DNA of 64,000 bases from Verrucomicrobiia bacterium (GTDB lineage: Bacteria; Zixibacteria; MSB-5A5; DSPP01), in contig DATLYY010000007.1 of NCBI GenBank assembly GCA_035574275.1, positions 4,928 through 68,927 of the forward strand. Reading direction: 5' to 3'. A model generated the notes under the pieces. The model saw only the letters and a list, made by a program, of their open reading frames with translations, was not told the DNA's origin and did not search any database. The position numbers and the translations under genes are program-made. Below, one piece after another: positions 32,603 to 53,513 of this stretch (its first letter is position 1; every line of letters begins with the position of its first letter).

Positions 32603-34861
32603 ATGGGGGTCGAAAAAATCGTCAAGTATTCCCTGCCGGCCCCGGCCTTCTGGGCGGCGGTGGCCTTTGCCGCCGGAATCTTCATCTCCGCACTTACCAC
32701 CAATCACCTTTTATTCTGGTTTATTTTCTCCGCCCTGGTCGGGATTGGCGCCTCATTTTTTCATTTTCGCTCCAATAATGCGGCCGCCAATTTAGGCGTT
32801 CTTCTCCTTCTTGTCGGTCTGGGAGCCGTGCGGTATTCGGCGGCCACGGATGTTGCCGAAGAGCGCTCGGTGGCCCATTTTGCCGGCCTCGACAAACGGT
32901 TGTTGATCACCGGCCGGGTTTGCGATCTGCCGGATGTCAAGCCGGAGCGTACCCGGATTTATCTGGATGAAATTACAATCGGCTGGACAAGCAAGCTCCA
33001 CTTGGATGGGAAAGTCCGGCTTACCATCGGCCGGGCGGTCACTTCCTACGTGGTGGGAGACCGGATTGGGTTCGTGGGTCGTCTTGATTCCCTTTGGCAG
33101 CCGGCCAACCCGGGAGCTTTGGATTTTGCCCGGTTGATGCGCATTCGCGGCGTGCAAGCGTCTGTTTATTTGAAAGATGATGAAGCAATCTCCGTTGTTG
33201 CTCAAAATTTGGGGAGCTGGCGTGCGCGTCTATCCAAAATTCGGGACGGCGTCGAACGAAAACTGACGACAGGATTGCCGCGCAAAGCATCCGGAGTCAT
33301 CAAAGGGTTCGTGCTCGGAGATACCAGGGACATCGAGCCCTCCACCTACGATTTGTTCCGGAAAACCGGCACGCTGCATCTTTTGGCCGTTTCCGGCGCC
33401 AACGTGGCCTGGGTGGCCATGTTGCCAATTTTTCTTTTGAAACTGTTTTTCCTTCCCCTGCGTACCCGTTACCTCGTTGCCCTGTTTGTCGTCTGGGTCT
33501 TCGTTTTGCTTACCGACTTGCAGGCCTCCGTTTTGCGGGCGGCCATTATGTTTACGGTGTGGACTACTTCACGAGTTGTTTATCGTGAAATATCCGGTTT
33601 GCAAAGCTTGGGGCTTTGCGCCCTCGTTCTGCTTGTCTTAAACCCGCTCTGGTTTTTCGACATCGGTTTTGAATTGTCCTTTCTGGCAGTTTTTGCTTTG
33701 ATCTTTTCCTTTGAAGAGAAAGATGAGCATCAGAAAAACTGGGCCAAACGATGGCTCATCCAGCCGTTTCACACTAATCTGGGCAGCTCGGTAGCGGTTT
33801 TTTTATTGATAACACCCCTTTTGGCTTACTATTTCAATCAGGTGGCTTGGACTTCGCTTTTGGTGAACGTCATGGCTATGCCACTGGCCGCCTTGATTTC
33901 CTGGTGTGCGCTCGTACGACTCGGTATTGGCTTTACGGAATTTTCGAGCCCTTTGGCATTCGTTCAGGAAAAACTGTTTGAATGGTTATTCGCCATACAG
34001 AATCTGTTTGTCAATCTGCCACACACACTTGTGCGGGTTCCCCATCCAAACGGTGTAGAGACCTTTTTGTTGACGATCGCCGGGTTTGGACTCTTTTTGA
34101 TTTTCTTCAAATCACAATATAAAAAGGTTGGTGTCTATCTTTTTTTGCTCGGTCTTGCGCCGGTTTTGTGGGGTTGGGGTTTCAAACGTTCATCGGGCTT
34201 TTCCCTTTCAGTTTTGGAGGCCAAGGGAGAGATGGTATCCGTTTTATCTCTTTTGGACCAGATAATCGTTATCGGGGGAGGCGAGGTACGCGATGCCCAG
34301 CATACGCCCCGGCAGGTTGTGGAACCGGTCTTGGCTTACTTGGGAAGGGACAAAATCGAGGGCTATTTGCCTTTGCGATTCGATTCTTTCGGGCAGGCCG
34401 CTTCGGCGGAAATCGTCACAAGGTTCCGGCCCGGCTTTGTCGGCTGGCCTGTGGCCCGTCAGCCGAAGGAGGAAACGGCTGATTCAATGACGTTGAAGTT
34501 TGAATACCTTCTGACAAGCGGGGATTCCGTCCCCTTCGCCCTCCGGGTAATAAAAGAGGACTACACCTTTCTGTTTGTTCCTCAGTTCAAGCGGTTTAGG
34601 CCGCCCCGATGGGATTCCCTTTTTGACGGCCCGACCGTCCTTATTGCCCCTTTGGAGTTTCCCCGGGCCGAGAGTTTGGCCCGGTTTTCCAACGTGAAAG
34701 TGGTGGTCTCTACCCGGCGGGATTACCGGCTTTTCCAAACCGGTCCGGATAGAGTTTTCTTCACTTTTCGGGACGGAGCAGTCAACTTCCGGGTCAAAAA
34801 AGAAGAATGGGAGGTTCGAACCCACTTTTCCAAGCGGAAGTTGGCCTTCGGCAACCGGTAG
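32603..34861 (+). CDS. comEC: ComEC/Rec2-family DNA internalisation channel protein
   Basis: 752 aa. N-terminal DUF4131-like TM/OB region, central competence domain ('LHLLAVSGANVAWVA'), and a C-terminal region that may be a degenerate metallo-beta-lactamase domain. Confidence 0.8.
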   Translation: MGVEKIVKYSLPAPAFWAAVAFAAGIFISALTTNHLLFWFIFSALVGIGASFFHFRSNNAAANLGVLLLLVGLGAVRYSAATDVAEERSVAHFAGLDKRLLITGRVCDLPDVKPERTRIYLDEITIGWTSKLHLDGKVRLTIGRAVTSYVVGDRIGFVGRLDSLWQPANPGALDFARLMRIRGVQASVYLKDDEAISVVAQNLGSWRARLSKIRDGVERKLTTGLPRKASGVIKGFVLGDTRDIEPSTYDLFRKTGTLHLLAVSGANVAWVAMLPIFLLKLFFLPLRTRYLVALFVVWVFVLLTDLQASVLRAAIMFTVWTTSRVVYREISGLQSLGLCALVLLVLNPLWFFDIGFELSFLAVFALIFSFEEKDEHQKNWAKRWLIQPFHTNLGSSVAVFLLITPLLAYYFNQVAWTSLLVNVMAMPLAALISWCALVRLGIGFTEFSSPLAFVQEKLFEWLFAIQNLFVNLPHTLVRVPHPNGVETFLLTIAGFGLFLIFFKSQYKKVGVYLFLLGLAPVLWGWGFKRSSGFSLSVLEAKGEMVSVLSLLDQIIVIGGGEVRDAQHTPRQVVEPVLAYLGRDKIEGYLPLRFDSFGQAASAEIVTRFRPGFVGWPVARQPKEETADSMTLKFEYLLTSGDSVPFALRVIKEDYTFLFVPQFKRFRPPRWDSLFDGPTVLIAPLEFPRAESLARFSNVKVVVSTRRDYRLFQTGPDRVFFTFRDGAVNFRVKKEEWEVRTHFSKRKLAFGNR

Positions 34862-35014: not shown

Positions 35015-36184
35015 ATGGCGTTTACCGGCAACCTGAATACCGTCGCTTTTTCGGACATTCTGCAGCTGCTTTCCCAAGGGAAGAAGACGGGGGCCTTGGC
35101 GGTCAGCAAGGGGCCTTTGAAAAAAGAGGTCTATTTCCGGAACGGCAACATTGTCTATGCTCTTTCCGCCAATGCCGAGGAGGATTTGCTGGGGAATCTG
35201 CTCCTGAAGCGGGGAAAAATCTCCAAGCCGGATCTGGAGCGGGCCATCTCCCTGCACAAGTCCACCGGCAAAAAGCTGGGGGTCACCTTAATCGAGCTCA
35301 ACTTGTTTTCGCGGGAAGAGATCGTGGCGGCCTTGAAGCTGCAAATCGAGGAGATCGTATACAACCTGTTCGGCTGGAATGAAGGGGAATTCATGTTCTA
35401 TGAAGGGAAAGCCCCGGCGGCCAGCCAGATTTTAACCGAACTGCCCACTTCCTCGGTCATGCTGGAGGGGGCGCGGCGAATCGACGAATGGGTGGAGATT
35501 CAAAAAGCCCTGCCGGCCGCCCATCTGCCCTTAAAGCTTTCCTCCAACCCAAAAGTCCGCGGGGAAGAAGTGACCTTGAGCGTGGACCAACTGGTCGTGA
35601 TGTCCCTGATTGACGGCAGCCGTACCTATCCGGAGGTTCTGCGGGCCTCGCCGATGGGGGAATTTGTAACCTCCAAGGCGTTGCACCAGCTCGTGCAGAG
35701 CGGGCTGGTGGAGGCGCTGCCCAAAAGCCGCTCCCGGCTTTCCTCACGGGAGGAGGAGGAATTGGTGTTTTCGGTCTCCCTGCGGGTTTTTTCCGCCTGC
35801 TTTGCCGTCTTGGTCCGTTTATTCGACAAAAAGGTGGGAAAGAGCTTTTTCCGCCGCCGGCTGCCGACCCCGCAGGAGAAAAAGGGAATCGACTTTTATC
35901 TGGCCTCTTTTTTATACGGGGAGGAGCATTTCAACCAGAACGATTTTTTGAGCCGGCTCTCGGAGCTGCCCAAGGAAATCCGGCTGCACAAGCTTCTGGC
36001 CGGGTTGGGGGCCATTCTGGAGGAAGGACTGGAGGTGGTGCGGCTGGTTTTGGGGGGGGCGGTTTACAAACGGGCCTGCAGCGACATGCGCAAGGAGGCT
36101 GCCGCCATCTTCGCCGAGGAACGGGAACTGGTGGGGAAATACGACCTGGAAACCGAAGTGTACCGGCAGATAAGGAAGGAGTGA
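35015..36184 (+). CDS. DUF4388-like domain protein (first gene of the polarity/T4P locus)
   Basis: 389 aa. N-terminal 'GNLNTVAFSDILQLLSQGKKTGALAV...VYFRNGNIVYA' matches the DUF4388-type domain. Remainder alpha-helical with no recognisable domain. Confidence 0.55.
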   Translation: MAFTGNLNTVAFSDILQLLSQGKKTGALAVSKGPLKKEVYFRNGNIVYALSANAEEDLLGNLLLKRGKISKPDLERAISLHKSTGKKLGVTLIELNLFSREEIVAALKLQIEEIVYNLFGWNEGEFMFYEGKAPAASQILTELPTSSVMLEGARRIDEWVEIQKALPAAHLPLKLSSNPKVRGEEVTLSVDQLVVMSLIDGSRTYPEVLRASPMGEFVTSKALHQLVQSGLVEALPKSRSRLSSREEEELVFSVSLRVFSACFAVLVRLFDKKVGKSFFRRRLPTPQEKKGIDFYLASFLYGEEHFNQNDFLSRLSELPKEIRLHKLLAGLGAILEEGLEVVRLVLGGAVYKRACSDMRKEAAAIFAEERELVGKYDLETEVYRQIRKE

Positions 36185-36188
36185 CCCC

Positions 36189-36554
36189 ATGAAAACGGCC
36201 GTTTTCACTTTTGCTTTACTTTTGTTTGCCCTTGGCAGCGCCCGGGCCGATGATTTGGCCAACCCGGCGGCCCCTTTTTGGGGAATCATTCTTTCCCTCG
36301 TTGCCGGGGTCTTCGGCGCGGCGGGATTGGCCTTTGCCTTTCGGGTGTACCGGCTTACCAGGGGAGGGGAACTGGCGGCGGGCTGGCAGTGGCTGGTGGC
36401 GGCCCTGTTTCTTTTCGCCGCTTCCCAAATTTTAAGTTTTCTCTCCTCCGCCGGCTGGGCCGAGGTTTCCCCCACCACCCTTTCGCTTTTGCAGTTCGGC
36501 GCAGGACTGGGGATTGCCTTCGGTGTGGCGCGCATAAAAAAAGTGATGAGTTGA
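36189..36554 (+). CDS. small integral membrane protein (signal peptide + 3 TM)
   Basis: 121 aa, MKTAVFTFALLLFALGSARA signal then hydrophobic segments. 4-nt gap to the upstream gene. Confidence 0.5.
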   Translation: MKTAVFTFALLLFALGSARADDLANPAAPFWGIILSLVAGVFGAAGLAFAFRVYRLTRGGELAAGWQWLVAALFLFAASQILSFLSSAGWAEVSPTTLSLLQFGAGLGIAFGVARIKKVMS

Positions 36555-36596
36555 CCTTGCCGAAAACCACCGACCCGCATAATTTGAAGGCGCCGA

Positions 36597-37484
36597 ATGC
36601 TTAATATAGCCGAACTGGACGACCGCATCGCCAAGTGCGAAAAAATTCTGGCGGAAAATCCGAATTCCCAAATTTTTGCCGCCCTGGCGGACGCCCACCG
36701 GCGCAAGGGGCAGTTGGACAAGGCCCTCGAGGTTTGCCGCAACGGACTGAAGCTGCATCCCAACTACGGCTCGGCTCATCTGGTTTTAGCCAAGGTGCAT
36801 ATGGACCGGCAAATGTACGAGTTGGCTGAAAAGGCGCTCGAAGAAGCAATCCGGCTGGACGGTCGCACCCGCGCCACCGAACTCTTGCTTTGCGAGATAT
36901 TCATTCACAAAAAGAAGCTGCCCGAAGCGCTTTCCATTTTGGAGAAGCTGCACATCACCGATCCGGAAAACCAGGAGGTTAAGTATCTGTTGGAGCTCTG
37001 TCGCAAGGAAACGGGAAAAACCCGCCCGACGGCGGAGATCACCCGCCCCAGTTTTTCCGCGCCCGCCCGGCCCGGGTCGAAGCGGGGGGATTCCGACATT
37101 TTTACGCTCGACACCGAGCGGGCGCAGGACTCCGTCATCGGTCCGGAGGAGGCGTTGGACGAGCTTTTTGCCATTCCGGAGGTGGACGCCCTGATGGTGG
37201 TAAACCGGGAGGGGCTCATCATCGACAAGCGTTTCCGCGGTAGCTGGGAGGCCGACAGCCTGGCGGCGGTCTCCGCATCCATTTTCACTGTGGCGGAAGA
37301 CAATCTGGAAAAAGTGGATTTGGGGCAGCTGGAAAAAGTCTGGATTGATGCGGACGGCGTCAGTTTCCTGGCCGTGCGCATGGAAGAAAAGGTCTTGATG
37401 GTGGTGTATCGTCCGGACATCAATTTGGGGGCTTTCAAGATGAAGGTCGGGGCGTTTTTGGATTACGCCCTTTTGGCCGGATAA
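36597..37484 (+). CDS. TPR-repeat / roadblock(LC7)-domain fusion protein
   Basis: 295 aa. The N-terminal about 140 aa are TPR-like helices. The C-terminal about 110 aa ('VDALMVVNREGLIIDKRF...VSFLAVRMEEKVLMVVY') have roadblock/LC7 (MglB-like) topology. Confidence 0.7.
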   Translation: MLNIAELDDRIAKCEKILAENPNSQIFAALADAHRRKGQLDKALEVCRNGLKLHPNYGSAHLVLAKVHMDRQMYELAEKALEEAIRLDGRTRATELLLCEIFIHKKKLPEALSILEKLHITDPENQEVKYLLELCRKETGKTRPTAEITRPSFSAPARPGSKRGDSDIFTLDTERAQDSVIGPEEALDELFAIPEVDALMVVNREGLIIDKRFRGSWEADSLAAVSASIFTVAEDNLEKVDLGQLEKVWIDADGVSFLAVRMEEKVLMVVYRPDINLGAFKMKVGAFLDYALLAG

Positions 37485-37493
37485 GGAGCGACG

Positions 37494-38426
37494 ATGTCAA
37501 AAGAACTTTCCAAAGCGTTGATTCTGGTTTTTTTGTTGGCCGCCGTTCCGATGATCTTCCATCCGGCCGACTTCGGCCTGGAATACGCCGGGTGGGCCGG
37601 CCCCCGGCTTCTGATCGCCGAGGCAATTTTCTACTTTTTGGTTTTCTTCTGGGTCTTTCCGGAAGCCGGAATGGGAAAAAAATTCGGCTTTGCCCTCGGC
37701 ACGCTCGCGTACCGCCTTTTTGCCGGGACGGTTTTGGGCATTTTTTTGGCCATCACCCGCTCGATCCCGCTGGGTGCCGCCCTGCAGCAGGGATGGTACG
37801 GCTATTTCCCCGGTTTTCTTTTGATGAGCATCATTACCCCGTTTTTGCTGAAGGGCATGTGGGCCGCTTCGCTTAAAAAGCCTCGCGCCGCCCGGCCCCA
37901 TGAGCCGGCCGCCCGTCCGGAACCCTCGGCTTCTTCCGTGATTCCGGTCCGCTCCGAAACGGGCCGGCCCCGCCACGAACCGGCGCCGGCGCGCCACGAT
38001 TTGCGGGAAATCAACTTTGACGACGCGTTGGCCTACATCGGGGAGCAGAAAGGGGTTTCGAAGGCCTATTTGGTTGACGAGGAGGGGCTGGTTTTGGCCC
38101 GCTTTGAGGCCGGCGGCACCTGGGAAGATGAGCTCTGGGCGGCTTGGGGGCTGGTTTTGGTTGAAAGAAACAAAGAGCTTGCCGCCCGGGTGGACCAGTC
38201 AAATTTTTCGGCCCTCGAGCTTTCCACCTCCGCCGGCAAGGTGTACGTGCAAAAGGTCTTGGATTTCTATTTGGTGGCCGTGGTCGAGCCCCATGCCGAC
38301 GAGCTGTTGAACGTCCGGCTGGTGCGGGCCTCCGAAATGATCAAACGCCACTGGCAGGAGAAATATGAACCGGTTTTGAAAACCAATCGGGAGGGACACC
38401 ATGTACCAGATCTTAGAGGAGCTTAA
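37494..38426 (+). CDS. membrane-anchored roadblock(LC7)-domain protein
   Basis: 310 aa. N-terminal 4-TM domain, Pro/Arg-rich linker, then a C-terminal roadblock-like domain ('VSKAYLVDEEGLVLARFEAGG...GKVYVQKVLDFYLVAVVEP'). Confidence 0.65.
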   Translation: MSKELSKALILVFLLAAVPMIFHPADFGLEYAGWAGPRLLIAEAIFYFLVFFWVFPEAGMGKKFGFALGTLAYRLFAGTVLGIFLAITRSIPLGAALQQGWYGYFPGFLLMSIITPFLLKGMWAASLKKPRAARPHEPAARPEPSASSVIPVRSETGRPRHEPAPARHDLREINFDDALAYIGEQKGVSKAYLVDEEGLVLARFEAGGTWEDELWAAWGLVLVERNKELAARVDQSNFSALELSTSAGKVYVQKVLDFYLVAVVEPHADELLNVRLVRASEMIKRHWQEKYEPVLKTNREGHHVPDLRGA

Positions 38427-38739
38427 CCGCACCTCCGGCGTCACCGGCAGCATGCTGGTGGGGCAGGACGGCATCGTCATCGCCGCCGATTTGAACACCG
38501 GCGTGGAGGATGACACGGTGGGGGCCTTGGCCGCCGCCATCACGACCAATGTGCAGAAGTCGCTGGAGCGCTTGCGCCAGACGCCGATGAAGCAGGTAAC
38601 CATCGAGGCGGAGCGGGGAAAAATCTTTCTGGCCGACGTGGGAAAGGGGATTTTGGTGGTGACCACCGATCCCCGGGTGAACATCGGGCTGGTGCGGCTG
38701 GAGATTAAAAACGCGGCCTCGCGCCTGGCACTGATGTAA
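38401..38739 (+). CDS. stand-alone roadblock/LC7-domain protein (MglC/MglB-paralogue-like)
   Basis: 112 aa. 'GVTGSMLVGQDGIVIAADL...GKIFLADVGKGILVVTTD' is a canonical roadblock fold. Directly upstream of mglA. Confidence 0.75.
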   Translation: MYQILEELNRTSGVTGSMLVGQDGIVIAADLNTGVEDDTVGALAAAITTNVQKSLERLRQTPMKQVTIEAERGKIFLADVGKGILVVTTDPRVNIGLVRLEIKNAASRLALM

Positions 38740-38747
38740 GGCAGACG

Positions 38748-39818
38748 ATGGTTTCCATCAATTACGCGTTCAAGGAAATCTCCTGCAAGATCGTCTATTA
38801 CGGTCCCGGGCTTTCCGGCAAGACCACGAACTTGCAGTACGTTCATAAAAAGGTGCCCCAGCCGACCAAGGGGGAGCTGATTTCGTTGGCGACGGACGCC
38901 GACCGGACCCTTTATTTTGACTTCCTCCCGATCAATATCGGGTCCGTGGCCGGTTTCACGACCAAGTTTCAGCTCTACACGGTACCCGGACAGGTGTACT
39001 ACAACGCCACCCGCAAACTCGTTTTGCGGGGGGTGGACGGGCTGGTTTTCGTGGCCGACTCCCAGGAATCGAAGATGGAGGAGAACGTCGAGAGTTTGAA
39101 AAATTTGTTGGACAACCTCCAGGAGTATGGCTACAGCTTGAACGAAGTGCCGATGGTCATCCAGTACAACAAACGGGATTTGCCCGGGGCTTTGCCCCTG
39201 GATGTTCTGGAGAAAGCGTTGAACCCGAACGGACTCCCCTCTTTTGAAGCGGTCGCGGTGAAAGGGGACGGGGTTTTCGACACGCTCAAGTGCATCATCA
39301 AAATCGTATTGGAAAAAGCCCGGGCGAAGTCGGAGACGGGGTCCAAAGCCTCCGAAACTGCACCCGCTCCGATGTCGGAGCCGGCTTCGCCGCCGGCGAG
39401 GCAGTCGATACCGGAACCGTTGGAAAGTGGTAGCGAGGAACGGCCCGCACCCCCGCCGCGGCCCAAAATGGAACCGGTCGGCGTCCAGTCGGACTGGTCG
39501 GTCCCCACGGCTTCGGAGCAGTTTCGCCCCGTGCCGGGGCTGTCCAAACCGGCCTCCGCTCCGGCGCCCCTGGAAGGACACCGCCCTGTGGTCGTGCCGG
39601 GTGTGCGTCAGACCTCGGGTTCGGAAGTGGAGCAACGGGCTCGCCAATCGGTCGAACGCCCCAAGCCTTTGGCCGCAGCCGAGCGGCCTTCCCCCGCCCG
39701 GCCGGAATTGAATTTGAAAAACCGCCCCGTTCTGCGCCCCAGCGAGCTGGCGCGCAGCCGGAAGGAAGAAAAGAAAAAAGGTTTTTTTTCGCGTCTGTTC
39801 GGGCTCTTTAAAAAGTAG
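38748..39818 (+). CDS. mglA: Ras-like small GTPase MglA with a long disordered C-terminal tail ending in an amphipathic helix
   Basis: The first about 195 aa align closely to Myxococcus MglA (P-loop 'YYGPGLSGKTTNL', 'DRTLYFDFLP', 'YTVPGQVYY', 'IQYNKRDL'). About 160 extra residues are Pro/Ser/Ala-rich and end in ...RKEEKKKGFFSRLFGLFKK. Confidence 0.88.
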   Translation: MVSINYAFKEISCKIVYYGPGLSGKTTNLQYVHKKVPQPTKGELISLATDADRTLYFDFLPINIGSVAGFTTKFQLYTVPGQVYYNATRKLVLRGVDGLVFVADSQESKMEENVESLKNLLDNLQEYGYSLNEVPMVIQYNKRDLPGALPLDVLEKALNPNGLPSFEAVAVKGDGVFDTLKCIIKIVLEKARAKSETGSKASETAPAPMSEPASPPARQSIPEPLESGSEERPAPPPRPKMEPVGVQSDWSVPTASEQFRPVPGLSKPASAPAPLEGHRPVVVPGVRQTSGSEVEQRARQSVERPKPLAAAERPSPARPELNLKNRPVLRPSELARSRKEEKKKGFFSRLFGLFKK

Positions 39819-39827
39819 GAGGGAATC

Positions 39828-40313
39828 GTGGACGAAAATCTGATCCTCTACGAAGAGGAAATAAGCCGCATCGACAAGGTGCTCTCGCGGCTGATCAAGG
39901 GGGCGGAGGCCAAGTGCGCCCTCCTGGTGGACAAAGACGGGCATTTGATCACCCGCCAGGGGTTCACCCATTCGCTGGACACCACCGCCTTGGCGGCGCT
40001 TCTGGCCGGCAGCTTTGCCTCCACCCGGGAGATCGCCCGGCTGGTGGGGGAACCGGAGTTCTCCGTGCTCTTTCATCAGGGGAAGCGGGACCATATCCAC
40101 ATTTCACTGGTCGGCGAGCGAACCATTCTGGTGGTCATTTTCGACGACCGCACCACCATCGGCATGGTCCGGCTTTACGCCAAGGAGGTGGGGGATGAAC
40201 TCGCCTTGATTTTCCGCGAGGCGAAGGAGAAGGCCAAAAAATCGGTCAAGCCGATTTCCAGCGAATTCTCCAATCAGGCGGAAAGCCGCCTGGACGACAT
40301 TTTCAAGGATTAG
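39828..40313 (+). CDS. mglB: MglB (roadblock/LC7-domain GAP of MglA)
   Basis: 161 aa. Collinear similarity to M. xanthus MglB ('LILYEEE...VDKDGHLITRQG...DTTALAALLAG...ILVVIFDDRTTIGMVRLYAK'). Confidence 0.85.
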   Translation: MDENLILYEEEISRIDKVLSRLIKGAEAKCALLVDKDGHLITRQGFTHSLDTTALAALLAGSFASTREIARLVGEPEFSVLFHQGKRDHIHISLVGERTILVVIFDDRTTIGMVRLYAKEVGDELALIFREAKEKAKKSVKPISSEFSNQAESRLDDIFKD

Positions 40314-40357: not shown

Positions 40358-42052
40358 TTGACGGCCGAATTGGGGGCCTTACTGGTCAAAGCGGGCAAAA
40401 TCACGCAGCAGCAGCTCGCCAAGGCCTTGGAAATCCAGAAACAGACGAACGGCAAGCTGGGCCAGATTCTGGTCCAGATGGGGGCGGTTCCGGACGAAAA
40501 CGAAATTTCCGAATTCGTCGGGCGCCAGCTCAACATCGGGGCTTTGCGTTTGTCGGATTTGGAGCTGAACCCGGAGGTGGTCAAGCTCATCCCGCTGGAT
40601 ATCGCCCGCAAGTTCAACGTTATCGCCATCTCGAAATTGGGCAAAACGCTGGTCGTTGCGATTTCCGACCCGAACAACATCTACGTTTTGGACGCCATCA
40701 AGTTCATCACCGGCTGCACGGTACAGCCGGTCATCTCCCCCGAAAAGGCGATTCAGAAAGCGATCGAGACCCAGTACCAGGACTCCGGCGGGTTGAAGGA
40801 AATTCTGGACAAAATCGAGGGGGACAGCCTCGAAGTTATCGACAGCGGCGAGGAGACGATCACCGAGCAGGACCTGCAAAGCCAGGTGCAGGACAAACCG
40901 TTGGTCAAACTGGTGGACCATCTCATCGCCGATGCCATCCGCAAGGGGGCTTCCGACATTCATATCGAATCGTACGAAAAACGAATCCGGGTGCGCTACC
41001 GCATTGACGGCGCCCTGCAGGAGATGGCTCCCCTGCCTTTTCGTTACCGGGCGGCCATTGTCTCCCGCGTCAAAATCATGGCGGACCTGGACATCTCCGA
41101 GCGGCGGCTGCCGCAGGACGGACGCATCAAGGTGAAAATCGGCGACCGGACGGTCGATCTGCGCGTCTCCGTTCTGCCCACCATTTTTGGCGAAAAAGTG
41201 GTCATGCGTATTTTGGATTCCAAAAGCTTGATGGTCGATCTGACCCGGCTGGGGTTCGAGGAGCAGGCCTTAAAGCAGTTCGAAGCGGCCATCAATCAGC
41301 CCTACGGCATCATTCTGGTCACCGGGCCGACCGGCTCCGGTAAAACCACATCGCTTTACTCGGCCTTGAAAACCATCAACACCACGGACATCAACATTAT
41401 GACCGCCGAGGATCCGGTGGAGTTCAACTTCGACGGCATCAACCAGGTTTTGGTCAAGCCGGACATCGGGCTCACCTTTGCCGCCGCGCTACGCTCCTTT
41501 TTGCGCCAGGACCCGGACGTCATACTGGTTGGTGAGATTCGCGACGGCGAGACGGCGGAAATCGCCATCCGCGCGGCCTTGACGGGGCATTTGGTTTTCT
41601 CCACCCTGCATACCAACGACGCTCCTTCTTCCATAAGTCGACTTATCGATATGGGGATTCCGAACTATCTGGTGGCATCGGCCACCAAGATGATCGTCGC
41701 CCAGCGGATGGTGCGCAAAATCTGCCAGTTCTGCAAGGTAGAGGTGCCGGTCACCAAAGAGGTGCTGTTGAAACTGGGGGTAACGGAAAAAGAGGTGGGA
41801 TCGTTCAAGGTTTTTGAAGGGAAGGGCTGTCAGGAGTGCGGGCAGACCGGTTATTCCGGCCGAAGCGGCATTTTTGAGGCGATGCCGATCACTCCGGCCA
41901 TTGAAGAGATGATCTTAAAACAGGCCTCCACGGCGGCATTGCGCGAGCAGGCGATAAAAGAGGGGATGCTGACTTTGCGGATGGCCGGTCTGATGAAAAT
42001 CAAGCAGGGGCTCACTTCCGTGGAAGAGGTTTTGGCGGAAAGCTCGGTCTAA
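40358..42052 (+). CDS. pilB: type IV pilus assembly ATPase PilB (GspE family)
   Basis: 564 aa. N-terminal T2SSE_N domains, Walker A 'GPTGSGKTTSLY', Asp/His boxes and a tetracysteine motif (CQFC...CQEC). TTG start after AAAGGAGGG. Confidence 0.88.
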   Translation: MTAELGALLVKAGKITQQQLAKALEIQKQTNGKLGQILVQMGAVPDENEISEFVGRQLNIGALRLSDLELNPEVVKLIPLDIARKFNVIAISKLGKTLVVAISDPNNIYVLDAIKFITGCTVQPVISPEKAIQKAIETQYQDSGGLKEILDKIEGDSLEVIDSGEETITEQDLQSQVQDKPLVKLVDHLIADAIRKGASDIHIESYEKRIRVRYRIDGALQEMAPLPFRYRAAIVSRVKIMADLDISERRLPQDGRIKVKIGDRTVDLRVSVLPTIFGEKVVMRILDSKSLMVDLTRLGFEEQALKQFEAAINQPYGIILVTGPTGSGKTTSLYSALKTINTTDINIMTAEDPVEFNFDGINQVLVKPDIGLTFAAALRSFLRQDPDVILVGEIRDGETAEIAIRAALTGHLVFSTLHTNDAPSSISRLIDMGIPNYLVASATKMIVAQRMVRKICQFCKVEVPVTKEVLLKLGVTEKEVGSFKVFEGKGCQECGQTGYSGRSGIFEAMPITPAIEEMILKQASTAALREQAIKEGMLTLRMAGLMKIKQGLTSVEEVLAESSV

Positions 42053-42102: not shown

Positions 42103-43182
42103 GTGGTCACGTTAAAGGATTTACTGGATTTGATGGTAAAAAGAGGGGCCTCCGATCTGCATTTGACCGTCGGCACGCCGCCCCAGATACGGGTGGACGG
42201 CAAGCTCACCAAGTTGGAAGGATACGACATCCTCACACCCGAGGAGACCAAAAAGCTGGCCTACAGCATTATGAACGAAAAGCAGCGCCAGCGCTTCGAG
42301 GAAAAATCGGAACTGGATTTGTCGTTCGGCATCGAGCAACTTTCCCGCTTTCGGGCCAACGTCTTTGTGCAGCGGGGGAATGTGGCGATGGCTTTGCGCC
42401 AGATCCCGTTCAAAATCCGCAGCTTTGAGGAGTTGGGCGTCCCCAAGGTGGTATCGGAATTGGCCAATTTACCGCGCGGGCTGGTTTTGGTCTGCGGCCC
42501 GACCGGCAGCGGCAAATCCACCACGCTGGCGGCTTTAATCGATAAAATCAACCGGGAGCGGCGCGATCACATCATCACGGTGGAAGACCCGATCGAATAT
42601 TTGCACCGCCACCAGTCCTGCCTGGTCAACCAGCGGGAGGTCGGGGCGGATACCCAGACCTTTGCCTCTGCGTTGAAATACGCCCTGCGGGAGGATCCGG
42701 ATGTGGTGTTGATCGGCGAGATGCGGGATTTGGAAACCATCGAGGCGGCCTTGACCATTTCCGAGACCGGACATTTGGCTTTCGCTACCCTGCACACCAA
42801 TTCCTGTGCAGAAGCGATCACCCGTATCGTGGACGTTTTTCCGACCAATCAGCAGGAACAGGTGAGGGTGACTCTTTCCTTTGTTCTGCAGGCTGTGGTC
42901 TGCCAGCAGCTTTTGCCCAAAATCGGCGGCGGCCGGGTGATGTGCATGGAAATCATGGTTTGCACGCCGGCCATTCGGGCGCTCGTCCGGGACGATAAAA
43001 TTCATCAAATTTACAGCCTGCTTCAAGCCGGGCAGAAGTACGGGATGAAAACGATGAACCAGTCCCTGGCGGAGCTCTATCTGGCCCGCAAAATCACCCA
43101 AGGGGACGCTTTGGCCCGCTGCTCCAACCAGCAGGAGTTCGCCGATCTGGTCGGGCGTAAAATGGAACTGGCGGCGGTCTAA
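42103..43182 (+). CDS. pilT: twitching-motility retraction ATPase PilT
   Basis: 359 aa. 'GPTGSGKSTTLAA' Walker A and PilT family features. GTG start after GGAGGG. Confidence 0.88.
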   Translation: MVTLKDLLDLMVKRGASDLHLTVGTPPQIRVDGKLTKLEGYDILTPEETKKLAYSIMNEKQRQRFEEKSELDLSFGIEQLSRFRANVFVQRGNVAMALRQIPFKIRSFEELGVPKVVSELANLPRGLVLVCGPTGSGKSTTLAALIDKINRERRDHIITVEDPIEYLHRHQSCLVNQREVGADTQTFASALKYALREDPDVVLIGEMRDLETIEAALTISETGHLAFATLHTNSCAEAITRIVDVFPTNQQEQVRVTLSFVLQAVVCQQLLPKIGGGRVMCMEIMVCTPAIRALVRDDKIHQIYSLLQAGQKYGMKTMNQSLAELYLARKITQGDALARCSNQQEFADLVGRKMELAAV

Positions 43183-43197
43183 CACAGGGGAGAAGCG

Positions 43198-44397
43198 ATG
43201 CCGGTATTTGAGTACAAGGGAAAATCGATGGGGGGCGCCGCGGTAGCCGGCGAGTTGAAGGCCAAAAACCGCGCCGAACTGGAACGGATTCTCCGCTCCA
43301 ACCGGATTCTGGTCACTTCCGTGACCAAAAAAGCGTCTGAAATCAAGCTTCCCACGTCCAACCGTATCCGGAAAATCGACATTTCCCGTTTCACCCGGCA
43401 GTTCGCCACGATGATCGGGGCCGGGCTGCCGATGGTGCAGTGCTTGGATATCTTGGCCCAGCAGATGGAATCTCTGGCTTTTCGCAAAATTATCGCGGAA
43501 GTGCGGGATTCGGTCTCTTCCGGTTCCACCCTGGCGGAGGCCTTGGGAAAGCACAAAAAAGTTTTTGATGAACTGTACTGCAACATGGTTGAAGCGGGAG
43601 AGGTCGGTGGCGCATTGGATACCATTCTGGTCCGGTTGGCTACTTACCGGGAGAAAGCGGACGCTTTGAACCGCAAGGTAAAAGGGGCGATGGTCTATCC
43701 GGCGGTCATTATGATCGTGGCCGCGGGCGTTACCTTTGCCATGCTTACCTACATCGTGCCGATTTTTGCAAAGATGTTCGCCAATTTGGGGACGGAACTG
43801 CCGGCCCCCACGCGGATGGTTTTGAAAATCAGCAACTTTATCCGGGATTTTTTCTGGTACGGCGTGACCTTGCTCGTGGTCGGTGCCTTCGTCTTCAGCC
43901 GCTGGATCAAGACGGACAAGGGGCGGCTGGCTTTCGACAAGTTTAAACTGAAGATACCCTTGATCGGGTCCTTGATCCGCCGCACGGCCGTAGCCCGGTT
44001 CACCCGGACGCTGGGCACTTTGATCTCCTCCGGTGTTTCCATTCTGGACGCGTTGGATACGACCGCAAAGACGGCTGGCAACCGGGTCGTGCATGACGCC
44101 ATCAAAAAATCGGTTTTGTCGATTGCCGAAGGGGAAACCATCACGCAGCCCCTAAAGGAGTCGGGCGTTTTCCCGCCGATGGTAATCCAGATGATTTCCG
44201 TGGGGGAAAAAACCGGCGGATTGGATGAGATGCTGCAAAAAATTGCCGATTTCTATGACGAAGAGGTGGATGCCGCCGTTTCGGCCTTGACCTCCATCAT
44301 CGAGCCGGTCATCATCCTTTTTATGGGTGTGGTTATCGGCGGCATTCTGATTGCCATGTATCTGCCGATGTTCGACATCGTGGGCGCCATCAAGTAG
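43198..44397 (+). CDS. pilC: type IV pilus platform protein PilC (GspF family)
   Basis: 399 aa. Two T2SSF repeats and three TM segments. Confidence 0.85.
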   Translation: MPVFEYKGKSMGGAAVAGELKAKNRAELERILRSNRILVTSVTKKASEIKLPTSNRIRKIDISRFTRQFATMIGAGLPMVQCLDILAQQMESLAFRKIIAEVRDSVSSGSTLAEALGKHKKVFDELYCNMVEAGEVGGALDTILVRLATYREKADALNRKVKGAMVYPAVIMIVAAGVTFAMLTYIVPIFAKMFANLGTELPAPTRMVLKISNFIRDFFWYGVTLLVVGAFVFSRWIKTDKGRLAFDKFKLKIPLIGSLIRRTAVARFTRTLGTLISSGVSILDALDTTAKTAGNRVVHDAIKKSVLSIAEGETITQPLKESGVFPPMVIQMISVGEKTGGLDEMLQKIADFYDEEVDAAVSALTSIIEPVIILFMGVVIGGILIAMYLPMFDIVGAIK

Positions 44398-44511: not shown

Positions 44512-46275
44512 GTGAGTTTCCTTAAATTCAAACTGGAAAAGATTGAAAAGGGTGACGAGGCCCGCCAGAGGCTGTTCTTCGTTCTCGGATTGCGCCTTTT
44601 GGTTTTTCTGGCGCTTCTGGCGGGATTGGTCGCCGGCACGCGCGTACCTCCGGAGCTTTTTTGGCCCCTCGTGGCGTACGGCGTTTTTTCGCTGGGCTTT
44701 CTTTTTCCGCTCGGCTGGAAGACGCCCTTGGCACTTTCGCGCAGCTGGATGTATTTCTACACCGCCCAGCTCATTCTCGAAGTGTGCTTGGAAGGGGCTG
44801 TTTTGCGCTACACGGGGGATTTTTCCAGCCCCTTTTCGGCTCTGTTTGTTCTTTCCATCATTTCCGCCGCGCTCATTTTCCGCTTTGCGGGAACCCTGCT
44901 TTTCTCCACGCTTTCGGCGTTGGTCTATACGATTGCGCTGGCGGTGTCGGTCGCCGGAGATTTCCACGGGCCGGAGGTCCTCCTTAATTTCTGGGTGGCG
45001 CTGTTTGCGTCCCGGAGTTTTTTCGCAACTTATGTTTTAAACCTTTCCGTTTTCTATCTAACCGCCCTGACCGCCGGGTTCATAGCCCGACGGCTTACCC
45101 AAAAAACAGAGGAACTGGCCCGCGCGGCCCGGGAACTCCGCCAGGCGCGGCTCGATTCCGAAGAGGTTTTGCAGACCATGAACTCCGGCGTTCTGTCCGT
45201 GGACCGGCTGGGAAAAATTCTTTTTGTCAACCGCACGGCGGAGGAGATTCTGGGACTTTCGGCCAAGGAACTGCTCGGCCGGGACAGCCGGGAGGCGTTG
45301 AAGGCGCCGGAGCTGGTGGAGCGGCTCTTTTCCGCCCTCTATTTTTTGAAGCCGGAGAACCGCTCCGAAATCAGCATCGTATCCAGCAAGGGGCGGTTGA
45401 TTCCCTTGGGAATCTCCACCGCTTTATTGGGGGAAAAAGAGACCGGCGTCCGCGGGGTGGTGGCGGTTTTTCAGGATTTGACCCAGGCCAAATTGATGGA
45501 GGAAAAAATAAAGGAGCAGGAGCGGTTGGCGGCCATCGGGGAGCTTTCCGCCGGCATTGCCCACGAAATCCGGAATCCTTTGGCCTCTCTTTCCGGATCG
45601 GTGGAGGTTTTGAAAAACGAACTGGTTTTAAGTGCCGAACAAAGGACTTTGTTCGAGTTGATACAAAAGGAGGCCACCCGGCTCAACTCCATCATCACCG
45701 ACTTTTTGTTTTTCGCCCGCACCTCGCCCCCCCGACTGGAACGGTTAGACGCGGCCAAGGTAGTCCGGGAAACCGTCGAGCTTTTGAAATCGAATCCGGC
45801 GTATCGTTTTTTTGACATTGAGTTGAAACTTTTGGCTCCCAACGTTTGGGTGCAGGGGGACGAGGGGCAGTTGAAGCAGATTCTCTTGAATCTGGCGGTC
45901 AACGGGTTGGAGGCGATGGAAAAAAATCTTTCCGAATCCCCTACCGGTATTTCCCGCGGCCGGAAGCTTTTGATCGCCTGCGGCTACAAGGCCCGCCGGC
46001 CGGAAAGCGATCCTTCCCCGTTTGTTTCCGTTGCCGACGAGGGGAGGGGAATGTCTCCCAATTTGCATGCCAAAATATTCCAGCCCTTTTTCTCCACCAA
46101 AAAAAGCGGCACCGGGCTTGGGCTGCCCATCGTCCAGCGGCTGGTTGCCAACCTTGGCGGTGCGCTCGATTTTACCTCCGAGCCGGGCAAGGGCACGACT
46201 TTTCTCCTTTTTCTGCAACGGCCTGAAGTCAAGAAAGAGCTGCCCTTGCCGCAATTGGTAAAGTCGTTCCAATAA
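44512..46275 (+). CDS. sensor histidine kinase, PilS-like (polytopic membrane domain + PAS + HisKA + HATPase_c)
   Basis: 587 aa. About 6 N-terminal TM helices, PAS-like region, H-box 'ELSAGIAHEIRNPL', and N/G1/G2 boxes. No response regulator gene is adjacent. Confidence 0.8.
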   Translation: MSFLKFKLEKIEKGDEARQRLFFVLGLRLLVFLALLAGLVAGTRVPPELFWPLVAYGVFSLGFLFPLGWKTPLALSRSWMYFYTAQLILEVCLEGAVLRYTGDFSSPFSALFVLSIISAALIFRFAGTLLFSTLSALVYTIALAVSVAGDFHGPEVLLNFWVALFASRSFFATYVLNLSVFYLTALTAGFIARRLTQKTEELARAARELRQARLDSEEVLQTMNSGVLSVDRLGKILFVNRTAEEILGLSAKELLGRDSREALKAPELVERLFSALYFLKPENRSEISIVSSKGRLIPLGISTALLGEKETGVRGVVAVFQDLTQAKLMEEKIKEQERLAAIGELSAGIAHEIRNPLASLSGSVEVLKNELVLSAEQRTLFELIQKEATRLNSIITDFLFFARTSPPRLERLDAAKVVRETVELLKSNPAYRFFDIELKLLAPNVWVQGDEGQLKQILLNLAVNGLEAMEKNLSESPTGISRGRKLLIACGYKARRPESDPSPFVSVADEGRGMSPNLHAKIFQPFFSTKKSGTGLGLPIVQRLVANLGGALDFTSEPGKGTTFLLFLQRPEVKKELPLPQLVKSFQ

Positions 46276-46365: not shown

Positions 46366-48048
46366 TTATTCCGCGGCCCAGCGGGAAACGTTGAACGAGG
46401 CCAAGTCGGACAGATAGGAGGGCCGGGTTGGGAAGAACGGCGGGGCGAAGCCGGTGGCATAGCGGTTGTCGTACCAGTAACGGCGGGAATAGCCACCGGA
46501 AAGTGCGCCGCTGCCGTTCAAGGTGCCGACCGTCTGTGATTGGTACTCGATAATCCCGCCCAAAAGTTTCACCGTGCCGTGCGGGTTGGACAAATCCTGC
46601 GAACCGAACCCGCGGTTAGTACCGCTGGCCATGATAGTGGCATGGACGTTGATGTTGTCCGGCGCGCCGGTACCGAGCTTGACGTCGCCGCCGGAGGAGA
46701 ATAGCCCCAGGGTGACCGTGGCGTTCGGGTCGATGTCCGGAATCGCCTCGGCCAAAGTCGGGTCGGACAGAATGGCGCCTCCCGAGTCCTTGAAAATGGC
46801 CCCTTCGTAAATCAGGTCGTTTTTAATCAAGATGTCCCCGGTGGTGGCGAGAGTCAGTTGTGTTTGAGCCGCCACGGTGGCCGTAGTGCGGGAAGTACCT
46901 CCCAGCCAGTTGACCGCACCGGCCACAAACAAGGCGCCGTTCGGCACGCCGCTGTAGGTGGTGCCGTTCAAAATTGTCTGGCGGTTGGCGTAGTCCACCG
47001 TCAGGGTATAACTGCTTCCGCCTTGCGCAAAGCGATAAATCTGTTCCCCGTTGGAGCCCCGCGTCAATTTGAGCGAATCCAAAGTTCCCTGCACGTAAAT
47101 GCCGCCCGTGACGTTGGTGGTGCCGTTGTTGGCCACATATACCCCGGTAGGCACCGCGCCGCCCCCTCCGAGACCTAATCCAGACCGTATTTCGTTGTTG
47201 TTGGGAGCCGTGGTATTATTAAAATCACCGCCAAAGGCCGCCCGCTGCTGGCTGTAGTTGTTGGTCGGCAGGGCCACCGTGGGGACGCCCCACTGGCTGC
47301 CGCCGTTGAAAACCGGGTTGGCGTTGTTGATGCGGGAACTGGTGGCATAGGAGCCCCAGGAGGAAGTGAACGGCCCGTTGAAAATCGGCGAACCGGAAAA
47401 GCCGGGTTTGCCGTTGGTATGCACCGGCCCGTTGAACTTCTCCCCGCCGGCAAAGTAAAGCTGACTGCCGGAGGTTGAAGTGGTCAGGTTACGGAAAAGG
47501 GCATATTGGGCAAATGACGGCCGGTCCAGATTGATGGAAAACGAGCCGGCGATGGTGTTGTTTTTCTGGTTGAAGCCGAGCGCCGGGTCGGCGTATTTCC
47601 CCTGCGAGGTTATCGTGTACTTGTAGGTAAACGTATACCCCCGCGAGGTGACTGCCGTGTCAAACGGCACGATGGAATATTTCAACCGGTAGGATTCCCG
47701 CCCCCCCATATAGGCGGCGGCCTTGAAGGAGTCCTGCGGGAAGCGATTGTTAAAGTTGGTGATGTATTTGGTCAACAGCCGCATAGGGTCGTCCAGAAAG
47801 GCAATCGCCGTATCCCGGTCGATGACGTAGCCCCCGATGCCGTTTATGGCGGTTCTCAAGTCCCCCTGGGCCGCCGCCAGCCCGCCTTCTGCGGTGTAAA
47901 ATGCCTTGGCGTCGTTTTTCTGGTTGACCGCGATATTGGTCTCCGTGTCGGACGTCAAAACGGCCGCCAGCCCGATTAAGCTGACCATCAGGAGCAACCC
48001 GACGGCCACAATCAGGGCGATGCCTTTTTGGTTTTTAAGCGTTTTCAT
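46366..48048 (-). CDS. PilX-like minor pilin / pilus-tip-associated protein with a large Gly/Asn/Thr-rich domain
   Basis: N-terminus 'MKTLKNQKGIALIVAVGLLLMVSLIGLAAV' matches the PilX_N-type hydrophobic segment. About 560 aa. Start at 48048 preceded by GGAGG. Confidence 0.6.
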   Translation of the reverse strand: MKTLKNQKGIALIVAVGLLLMVSLIGLAAVLTSDTETNIAVNQKNDAKAFYTAEGGLAAAQGDLRTAINGIGGYVIDRDTAIAFLDDPMRLLTKYITNFNNRFPQDSFKAAAYMGGRESYRLKYSIVPFDTAVTSRGYTFTYKYTITSQGKYADPALGFNQKNNTIAGSFSINLDRPSFAQYALFRNLTTSTSGSQLYFAGGEKFNGPVHTNGKPGFSGSPIFNGPFTSSWGSYATSSRINNANPVFNGGSQWGVPTVALPTNNYSQQRAAFGGDFNNTTAPNNNEIRSGLGLGGGGAVPTGVYVANNGTTNVTGGIYVQGTLDSLKLTRGSNGEQIYRFAQGGSSYTLTVDYANRQTILNGTTYSGVPNGALFVAGAVNWLGGTSRTTATVAAQTQLTLATTGDILIKNDLIYEGAIFKDSGGAILSDPTLAEAIPDIDPNATVTLGLFSSGGDVKLGTGAPDNINVHATIMASGTNRGFGSQDLSNPHGTVKLLGGIIEYQSQTVGTLNGSGALSGGYSRRYWYDNRYATGFAPPFFPTRPSYLSDLASFNVSRWAAE

Positions 48049-48073
48049 TGTGATTGCCTCCATTCCTTTTCAA

Positions 48074-48958: not shown

Positions 48959-49155
48959 ATTCGCTCCTTCGTCTTTCACGGTTTCGCAAGGGGTGTGCCC
49001 GTTATTTTGGTAAAATTCCCCAAGGGGGACAAGGACTTACCTGGGCGCAAGTTTGGGGGGGTGTTTTTTAATATGGGAACTTTCCCATAGCCTTCCCGTT
49101 GTAGGCGCGCAAGTCAGCTCCAATCATAAATGCGGGGGAAGGGCAGCAGTCGCTG

Positions 49156-53225: not shown

Positions 53226-53513
53226 GTGCGTCCGCTGGCCTTTAAATTTTTAACCCTTGCGTTAACCATGTTCCTGCTCCTTTCGTTTTCCCTTTCCGCT
53301 TTCGCCTTGCCCCTCCGCTATTGGCTGGCCACTCGGGATGTGGATGAACAACCGTACCCGGCGGCTTCCCGCAATGCGACCTATTTTGTGGTTCTGAAGA
53401 CGACGTACGGAATTGTGTTAATACCGGTTTTTGTAAAATCGGGCAAAATCTCAAACGCCATTACCCCGGAAAAGTCGGGTTTTTCATCAGGGAAAAATGA
53501 AATCCTCGACTAA
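53226..53513 (+). CDS. small secreted protein (about 95 aa), hypothetical
   Basis: GTG start 8 nt after AAAGGAG. N-terminal signal peptide (FKFLTLALTMFLLLSFSLSAFA). Overlaps the start of the downstream regulator by 17 nt. Confidence 0.4.
   Translation: MRPLAFKFLTLALTMFLLLSFSLSAFALPLRYWLATRDVDEQPYPAASRNATYFVVLKTTYGIVLIPVFVKSGKISNAITPEKSGFSSGKNEILD

Follow-up and report, generated by a model that had tools for sequence, protein, structure and literature searches.

A 64,000-nucleotide (nt) stretch of DNA from a member of the phylum Zixibacteria (deposited as Verrucomicrobiia bacterium; GenBank assembly GCA_035574275.1, contig DATLYY010000007.1, positions 4,928 to 68,927 of the forward strand), referred to as the window, was analysed for a block of seven genes built around the Ras-like GTPase MglA and its partner MglB. 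All seven open reading frames (ORFs) are located on the plus strand, with boundaries identical to those given in a first-pass annotation made from the letters of the sequence. In window coordinates, they encode a PATAN (DUF4388/PatA_N) protein of 389 amino acids (aa; 35015..36184), a small membrane protein of 121 aa (36189..36554), a fusion of TPR repeats with a roadblock domain (TPR-RB, 295 aa; 36597..37484), a fusion of four transmembrane (TM) helices with a roadblock domain (4TM-RB, 310 aa; 37494..38426), a stand-alone roadblock protein (RB, 112 aa; 38401..38739), MglA (356 aa; 38748-39818) and MglB (161 aa; 39828..40313). The intergenic gaps across the block are 4, 42, 9, -26, 8 and 9 nt, the last one separating mglB from mglA. 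As the first-pass annotation had stated, the block lies directly upstream of pilB, pilT and pilC: pilB follows 44 nt after mglB, and the next gaps are 50 nt to pilT and 15 nt to pilC. The mgl module is probably co-transcribed with these type IVa pilus motor genes.

The window proteins were compared with Pfam and NCBIfam and, using phmmer, with the PDB sequences, and were further analysed for hydropathy and composition. All seven domain assignments of the first-pass annotation were borne out by Pfam, by hydropathy, by PDB matches and by an AlphaFold2 (AF2) model. For comparison, a scan for MglA in one genome per species delivered 80 loci, which were annotated with jackhmmer profiles seeded by the window proteins. 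An antisense ORF of 633 aa covering the roadblock, mglA and mglB genes (38199-40100, minus strand) was rejected as a gene and considered as a shadow ORF of GC-rich coding sequence.

The G domain of MglA (residues 1-192; 38748..39323, plus strand) is a canonical small GTPase of the group-1 MglA type. Residues 3-192 were aligned with MglA of Myxococcus xanthus (5ymx, phmmer E 2.7e-78) at about 70% identity, and MglA of Thermus thermophilus (3t12_A) was matched with an E-value of 2.1e-74. The family P-loop GPGLSGKTT is present in the translation, and the intrinsic arginine finger Arg53 (DADR53TLYFDF) and the catalytic Gln82 are kept in translation and alignment, with Thr78 standing in place of the Asp of the DxxGQ motif (LYT78VPGQ82). 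The product of mglB is likewise a canonical MglB. It was matched to MglB of M. xanthus (6izw_B) with an E-value of 7.7e-38 over residues 3-160, the acidic C-terminal helix included, to the Thermus protein 1j3w with 1.8e-20, and to Pfam Robl_LC7 with 7.1e-14.

The most distinctive feature of the locus, absent from the first-pass annotation, is that MglA is extended at its C-terminus and that this extension has a conserved end resembling a membrane-targeting sequence. While single-domain MglA has a size of ~195 aa, the window protein continues for 164 residues past the G domain. This acidic extension, rich in Pro, Ser, Glu and Ala, is made of a linker of disordered composition (residues 193-341; 39324..39770, plus strand) and of a predicted membrane-targeting, polybasic amphipathic motif at the very C-terminus, KKKGFFSRLFGLFKK (39771..39815, plus strand), with a hydrophobic moment of 0.64. 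Every one of the 50 Zixibacteria orthologues with a complete ORF is extended, with lengths of 313-480 aa. Two deep-branching relatives measure 463 and 649 aa, and the tail motif was also recognised in the deep-branching loci L083 and L084. The linkers vary in length from about 120 to 450 aa and cannot be aligned between orthologues; when pooled, they are acidic. The terminus, by contrast with the linker, displays a mean maximal hydrophobic moment of 0.56 versus 0.36, and in 50 of 50 orthologues it consists of clustered basic residues and, after them, an amphipathic stretch with aromatic residues, with KKRGFFKRLFGIK, KGFFLWRFLNKLLNR, KKSGLFGWLKKK and KKSLFGWFKKLGR as further examples. On average, the final 20 residues carry a net charge of +6.9 and 3.3 aromatic residues. 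These properties suggest that the tail probably pins the protein to the membrane, as known for eukaryotic Ras. In one locus from a complete genome (L002, 10181-11428; GCA_020343475.1, CP070796.1) no gene had been called at the place of mglA, yet an intact MglA ORF of 399 aa is present there.

When the PDB was searched with the tail of the window protein, the only matches, at a non-significant level, were to E. coli FtsY in the segments KEKKRGFFSWL and KEGFFARLK, which we take to be the two lipid-binding amphipathic helices of FtsY. A comparable terminus, KGFLKRLFGG, is found in E. coli MinD. The amphipathic helix of FtsY has been employed as a membrane tag (PMC6158289, which cites Parlitz et al., 2007).

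Other phyla display different ends on MglA. Two Fibrobacterota-type orthologues terminate in KGLF(S/G)K(F/L)FGKK. In eleven Planctomycetota-type orthologues of 414-563 aa (loci L054, L055, L056, L060, L065, L067, L068, L071, L073, L075 and L079; nine are titled Planctomycetota, and L060 is an unclassified metagenome-assembled genome), the protein ends in a hydrophobic segment of 19-23 residues with a Kyte-Doolittle value of 2.1-2.9 and with basic residues before it. These proteins look like tail-anchored membrane proteins. Their anchor is unlike the amphipathic motif of Zixibacteria and may represent another route to the same membrane attachment. The Sumerlaeota MglA (L058, L061, L064 and L069) are about 350-370 aa long and possess a distinct conserved C-terminal region ending in ...GMDRIYL(I/V)YPG...GP.GE..P(F/V). 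Pfam matched these proteins in the G domain and gave no match in the extension, and neither roadblock nor PATAN neighbours were detected at the four mglA loci. MglA of canonical length was obtained from Gemmatimonadota and Eisenbacteria. Literature searches did not deliver any paper describing a membrane-anchored or extended MglA. In the survey of Wuichet and Søgaard-Andersen (2014; PMC4316618), Ras-superfamily GTPases were treated as single-domain proteins and MglB homologues of 129-179 aa were retained; criteria of this kind in earlier surveys may have excluded extended or fused architectures such as those reported here.

Together with MglB, the three accessory proteins bring the number of roadblock domains at the locus to four. 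In TPR-RB, TPR repeats (Pfam TPR_19, 5.5e-14) occupy about residues 1-140 and are followed by a linker and by a roadblock domain at residues 184-290 (Robl_LC7 PF03259, 8.5e-10, 38.7 bits against a cut-off of 23, residues 184-271), which also matched the PDB roadblock protein 7f8m (1.4e-4). A total of 233 homologues of TPR-RB was collected, mostly from Zixibacteria. The stand-alone RB was identified by Pfam Robl_LC7 (7.6e-16). Its best PDB matches were the archaeal roadblock proteins 7f8m and 7yh1, and MglB was matched as well.

The assignment of 4TM-RB required a family-wide analysis. As a single sequence, the protein obtained 19.6 bits with Robl_LC7, which is under the gathering cut-off of 23, its N-terminal half was hydrophobic, and a PDB sequence search returned nothing. 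A word-indexed search found 20 relatives (at least 64% identity), and an exhaustive search with a hidden Markov model (HMM) found 170 cluster representatives, nearly all of them 300-350 aa long and matched end to end. Robl_LC7 was matched individually by 31 of the 88 aligned family members (best 2e-7), and no other family recurred. Comparison of the family profile with the 112-aa RB using hhalign gave a probability of 88% and an E-value of 2.9e-6. An AF2 model based on 15 close homologues reached a pLDDT (predicted local distance difference test) of 56; the model obtained with the 88-sequence alignment reached 86 and was the one used. It predicted TM helices at residues 3-22, 36-54, 60-89 and 93-127, a disordered linker at residues 128-172 and, at residues 175-300, a domain of alpha-beta-beta-alpha-beta-beta-beta-alpha order. 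The top 50 hits of a Foldseek search of the PDB were all of roadblock fold (archaeal roadblocks, Ragulator p14/MP1 and MglB). By the positive-inside rule, the loop charges read from the sequence agree with an N-in/C-in topology, which would place the roadblock domain in the cytoplasm.

Profile searches, hhalign, AF2 and Foldseek are thus in agreement with the earlier proposal of four roadblock domains, fused to TPR repeats and to a membrane anchor, and a roadblock fold was recovered from both fusion genes, 36597-37484 and 37494-38426. Two further points of that proposal had to be modified. The likening of the extra roadblock proteins to MglC was not upheld: no sequence match of the 112-aa RB to MglC (7cy1) was obtained at E <= 1, whereas archaeal roadblocks and MglB were matched, and the candidate identification of RB as MglC was rejected. 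The 4-TM fusion is real in the window and is not universal. The 4-TM domain is carried by 38 Zixibacteria loci besides the window and is lost to the contig end in L007, and in 13 loci (L016, L018, L021, L025, L029, L035, L039, L041-L045 and L051) the orthologue is a soluble roadblock protein of 133-171 aa. No ORF for the TM domain was found elsewhere in these 13 loci. The small membrane protein is kept in this clade wherever the locus reaches it, and a basic amphipathic tail is present on every complete MglA.

Relationships among the roadblock domains were investigated with an HMM of the 4TM-RB domain, which matched the orthologues of the 112-aa RB at 1e-8 to 1e-12, the domain of TPR-RB at 1e-5 to 1e-11 and MglB at 1e-4 to 1e-5. 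The three accessory domains are closer to one another than to MglB, and 4TM-RB and RB are mutual closest paralogues. In the window, the RB gene overlaps the end of the 4TM-RB gene by 26 nt, and based on longest-ORF starts this overlap recurs in 42 of 52 loci. Roadblock proteins are known as dimers which often form heteromeric platforms acting as guanine nucleotide exchange factor (GEF), GTPase-activating protein (GAP) or scaffold (PMC9481161).

Within the TM domain of 4TM-RB (37494-37874), Glu43 in TM2 and Arg74 in TM3 are invariant among the 88 members, which average 33% identity, and Pro24, Tyr47, Tyr104, Pro106 and Pro116 are nearly invariant. The conservation of this buried charge pair suggests that the membrane domain has a function beyond anchoring. 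It could be taken further, in the sense that the accessory roadblock proteins are not a membrane platform but independent, alternative regulators of GAP or GEF type, or decoys, of MglA and that the 4-TM domain is a sensor which, via Glu43 and Arg74, would respond for instance to membrane potential or to a lipid and modulate the activity of MglA. Invariance across 88 sequences does exceed the need of a passive anchor, one clade does without the TM domain, and MglB-like roadblock dimers can combine GAP and exchange activity according to PMC6785124. The tight overlap of the 4TM-RB and RB genes and their close paralogy fit better with an obligate complex, however, and strong full-length similarity to characterised GAPs, C-terminal helix included, was found in MglB alone among the roadblock proteins of the locus. 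A set of independent regulators with a membrane sensor is therefore judged improbable.

The two genes at the start of the block encode the PATAN protein and the small membrane protein. The PATAN domain (Pfam PF14332, 9.6e-33) spans residues 4-159 and is followed by an uncharacterised C-terminal half of 230 aa. Since these residues are covered by profile positions 1-121, the domain contains a helical insertion. An MshEN-like tandem motif for binding of cyclic di-GMP (c-di-GMP) was detected inside this insertion (residues 59-110; 35189..35344, plus strand; NCBIfam NF053729, 46.8 bits against a cut-off of 38, E 1.9e-12). A PATAN orthologue occupies the equivalent position in 44 Zixibacteria loci, and the motif pattern is conserved in all of them: motif 1 reads L-L/F-G in 44/44, and in motif 2 the LG is preceded by K, Q or R. 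In MshEN motifs of canonical type, the Arg of RLG contacts the ligand. The PATAN protein might, with some uncertainty, receive a c-di-GMP input, and a clear MshEN domain is present in PilB. In Synechocystis, PATAN domains are membrane-localised and have the N-terminal domains of PilB1 and PilC as binding partners (bioRxiv 10.1101/2021.06.11.447907). A PATAN fusion of another type was observed in the Planctomycetota locus L055 (2832-6314), where a 1160-aa protein combines PATAN, TPR repeats, PEGA and a PQQ-type beta-propeller; its gene lies immediately upstream of genes for a TPR-roadblock fusion, a roadblock protein and MglA. The small membrane protein was not matched by any Pfam or NCBIfam model. 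Its N-terminus resembles a signal peptide, two TM segments (residues 33-51 and 69-87) exceeded the hydropathy threshold and a third one was borderline. It also has a conserved cytoplasmic loop (GG...WQ), and its orthologues hold the same position in Zixibacteria loci.

Downstream of mglB, the plus strand encodes the pilus extension ATPase PilB (40358..42052; TIGR02538, 722 bits against a cut-off of 676; Pfam T2SSE and an N-terminal MshEN domain; c-di-GMP motif model 1.2e-15), the retraction ATPase PilT (42103..43182; TIGR01420, 499 bits against 319) and the platform protein PilC (43198..44397; Pfam T2SSF 3.9e-68; NCBIfam PilC models with 504 and 424 bits). The last conserved gene of the block is coding for a PilS-like sensor histidine kinase (44512..46275, plus strand) with a TM region and PAS, HisKA and HATPase_c domains in Pfam; its counterpart after pilC in related loci matched 6TM_PilS. 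No pilR was found after pilS in the window. Convergent to pilS (46366-48979, minus strand), a 565-aa PilX_N/DUF4900 protein and a 301-aa protein with an N-terminal methylation motif are encoded, which are probably minor pilins or tip proteins.

The seven-gene core was found in the same order in 42 of 52 Zixibacteria-type loci (window counted), the remaining ones being cut by contig ends or containing split ORFs, and pilBTC was present on the same fragment in 30 of these 42. Two complete Zixibacteria genomes, in which TPR-RB is only ~40% identical to that of the window, displayed an unchanged gene order: murJ, comEC, PATAN, a membrane protein of ~125 aa, TPR-RB, a TM-RB of ~320 aa, RB, a long mglA, mglB, pilB, pilT, pilC and pilS. 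Two TM-RB relatives at about 20% identity, the most divergent ones tested, were recovered in the same gene context. The seven-gene arrangement is conserved far beyond chance, and the gene-neighbourhood comparison showed a conserved MglA module physically joined to type IV pilus genes, in line with the first-pass view of a system wired to these pili.

It may be argued that the adjacency of mgl and pilBTC is gene order without functional coupling and that the tail of MglA is a spacer or a protein-interaction region. The unrelated genes murJ and comEC are likewise syntenic around the block, and a scan of the operon for promoters and terminators gave no signal above shuffled expectation. Pure synteny is nevertheless unlikely, since the order survives down to about 20-40% identity with minimal spacing, the intergenic distances being short or negative. 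Moreover, experiments in Myxococcus, Bdellovibrio and Thermus have connected MglA with type IV pili (PMC7519303, PMC3983030, PMC12024867), and three lineages have converged on a basic amphipathic or hydrophobic C-terminus of MglA. An arrangement devoid of functional meaning is considered highly improbable.

Several elements of the block are shared with other phyla. The location of PATAN genes next to mglA and mglB was already noted by Makarova et al. (2006), as cited by Wuichet and Søgaard-Andersen (2014; PMC4316618). Homologues of TPR-RB covering both the TPR and the roadblock part adjoin mglA/mglB in Planctomycetota and Gemmatimonadota, usually accompanied by one more roadblock gene and frequently by PATAN genes, and the combination of TPR and Robl_LC7 was confirmed by Pfam in L055, L076, L080 and L082. 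The TPR-RB fusion as a feature unique to the lineage was rejected on this ground. Zixibacteria-specific in the sample are the 4-TM domain on a roadblock protein, the small membrane protein and the direct junction with pilBTC-pilS. The earlier description of the system as architecturally distinct stands for the 4-TM roadblock protein and the junction, and falls for the published PATAN linkage and for TPR-RB. The order mglA-mglB, which had been pointed out as the reverse of the myxococcal one, is indeed present and is shared by Zixibacteria, Planctomycetota and Fibrobacterota; mglB-mglA was seen in the loci of Gemmatimonadota and Eisenbacteria. Because the order simply tracks the phylum, it has no evident mechanistic meaning and was rejected as a meaningful feature.

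Upstream of the PATAN gene, comEC (32603-34861; DUF4131 and Competence domains) is preceded by murJ, and both are conserved at this place across Zixibacteria; comEC is immediately upstream in 32 related loci as well as in the window. This raises the question of a competence pilus, for which MglA, MglB and their partners would place or time PilB and PilT during transformation with ComEC instead of setting front-rear polarity for twitching. Such a function is compatible with control of the pilus motor by the mgl module. According to its title, as cited in PMC12024867, the work of Salzer et al. (2015) tied MglA/MglB of Thermus to pilus functions and natural competence. Between comEC and the PATAN gene, however, there is a gap of 153 nt with a weak hairpin, so that the two need not be co-transcribed, and the adjacency of murJ and comEC may be plain conserved synteny. 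Regulation of PilS type and nearby genes for PilX-like proteins and minor pilins are, in addition, typical of motility type IVa pili. A role in DNA uptake is regarded as unlikely, if reasonable.

Two further observations were made in the downstream part of the window. A 476-aa protein (53497-54927) displays a long TPR array and a C-terminal Fis-type HTH_8 DNA-binding domain with neither receiver nor AAA+ domain, which is an unusual architecture for a regulator. A Yip1-domain membrane protein (55288-56034; Pfam 2.3e-16), whose domain is named after eukaryotic Rab-interacting proteins, probably has no connection to the mgl block, as it lies 15 kb away beside efflux genes (OEP, HlyD).

The locus is interpreted here as a phylum-wide Zixibacteria operon that encodes a membrane-resident MglA/MglB Ras-like switch and that most likely controls the type IVa pilus motor genes, a reading to which slightly better than even confidence is given. 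Components, conservation and linkage are established; every mechanistic step is inferred. MglA would be kept at the inner membrane by its long disordered linker and its polybasic amphipathic helix, and the linker would let the G domain contact partners located tens of nanometres off the bilayer. The MglB dimer would act as GAP, as in Myxococcus and Thermus. The roadblock domains of TPR-RB, 4TM-RB and RB may dimerise into a membrane platform anchored by the 4-TM domain; based on overlapping genes and closest paralogy, the likeliest heterodimer would be formed by 4TM-RB and the 112-aa RB and be held at the membrane. This platform could recruit or position MglA, or exchange its nucleotide, comparable to Ragulator for the Rag GTPases and to MglC/RomR for MglA.

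The output side would consist of the PATAN protein and the TPR array supplied by TPR-RB, linking MglA-GTP to PilB and PilC and deciding the place and time of pilus extension; the PATAN protein may sense c-di-GMP, too. The role of TPR-RB is proposed by analogy with the TPR effector SgmX, which in M. xanthus acts with MglA-GTP in the recruitment of PilB (PMC7519303, PMC7668184, PMC11580455). In Thermus, mutants of mglA and mglB have mislocalised pili (PMC12024867). The PATAN protein would be the likeliest motor adaptor, because of the membrane localisation of PATAN domains and their binding to PilB1 and PilC in Synechocystis mentioned above.

Several points weigh against the interpretation as a membrane-resident switch of the pilus motor. 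Zixibacteria are an uncultured phylum. The evidence for membrane binding of the MglA tail consists of composition, amphipathicity and conservation; some clades have tails whose hydrophobic moment does not exceed that of windows taken from the linker, and the similarity to FtsY is not significant (E 4.3) and has to be seen as resemblance, not homology. The 4-TM anchor is missing from 13 of 52 Zixibacteria loci, which means that the module can do without a membrane-integrated form of that roadblock protein. Among the 84 loci considered for linkage, pilBTC is directly joined to mgl in Zixibacteria only. In the MshEN-like motif of the PATAN protein, the canonical Arg of RLG is absent from motif 1 and rare in motif 2 (7/44). 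Finally, the pili could serve DNA uptake instead of motility, because comEC is conserved just upstream.

A bolder version of the membrane-resident switch is proposed tentatively, as a doubtful but attractive extension. MglA would be permanently tethered to the membrane, through the disordered linker and the polybasic amphipathic helix in Zixibacteria and through different anchors in Planctomycetota and Fibrobacterota, a tail-anchor TM helix among them. It would go through its GTPase cycle on a membrane-integrated platform of 4TM-RB, RB and TPR-RB, and it would directly gate PilB at the pilus base, replacing the RomR/RomX recruitment of Myxococcus. If true, a permanently tethered MglA on such a platform would represent the bacterial counterpart of the anchoring of Ras by its hypervariable region and of Ragulator-type scaffolding, and the tethering would give a prokaryotic precedent for both modes of confinement of eukaryotic small GTPases, the C-terminal anchor and the roadblock scaffold. 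Distinctive of this locus are the probably membrane-tethered MglA, the membrane-integrated roadblock paralogue and the joining with the pilus motor block, the other elements being partly shared with other phyla. Knowledge of MglA, the model bacterial Ras-like polarity switch, comes mainly from Myxococcus, where the protein is soluble and works with the lineage-specific partners RomR/X/Y, MglC and SgmX. The Zixibacteria locus represents a different, phylum-conserved solution, in which the GTPase is apparently tethered, the roadblock partners are multiplied and fused, and all genes stand in one block with the motor genes. It also offers a compact and self-contained gene set for reconstituting the control of PilB and PilT by MglA.

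When compared with the module of M. xanthus (MglA, MglB, MglC, RomR/RomX and RomY, with the effectors SgmX, FrzS and SopA), the Zixibacteria system shares an MglA of ~70% identity with Arg53, Thr78 and Gln82, a homologous full-length MglB with its C-terminal helix, an extra roadblock paralogue, a TPR partner and, as presumed functional target, the PilB/PilT motor of type IVa pili. It differs in that the soluble MglA of ~195 aa is replaced by a protein with a 164-aa extension of linker and polybasic amphipathic end, in that a set of three accessory roadblock proteins, one with TPR repeats, one with four TM helices and one stand-alone, takes the place of a single MglC, in the lack of any RomR-, RomX- or RomY-like gene at the locus, and in the gathering of the mgl genes, in the order mglA-mglB, in one block with pilBTC. 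Thermus thermophilus likewise has an MglA/MglB pair outside myxobacteria, which affects the localisation of type IV pili, but its proteins are minimal and single-domain, and accessory roadblock, PATAN and membrane elements have not been described with them. With cyanobacterial PatA-type (PATAN-REC) response regulators such as PixE and PixG, the PATAN domain is shared, whose binding to PilB1 and PilC in Synechocystis serves to set the direction of pilus activity. The Zixibacteria protein has no receiver domain, carries an MshEN-like motif in the insertion and an uncharacterised C-terminal half of 230 aa, and is encoded beside mglA and mglB and not in a chemotaxis-like system. In actinobacterial conservons (CvnA-D), a membrane protein, a roadblock protein and a GTPase of the MglA family are also encoded together; there, the membrane component is a histidine kinase, the GTPase belongs to another MglA group and no link to pili is present.

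With respect to membrane attachment, the tail KKKGFFSRLFGLFKK resembles the targeting sequences of MinD, FtsY and FtsA, in which a short terminal basic cluster is combined with an aromatic or aliphatic amphipathic stretch. Here the motif stands on a Ras-like GTPase at the end of a long disordered linker, and the similarity is compositional, not significant homology. With Ragulator-Rag, where roadblock heterodimers of LAMTOR proteins are held on the lysosomal membrane, there is an analogy of the proposed architecture only; the anchor would be four TM helices fused to a roadblock domain in place of the lipidated LAMTOR1, and the GTPase is MglA instead of a Rag heterodimer. The linker and anchor of MglA, finally, resemble the hypervariable region plus anchor of eukaryotic Ras.

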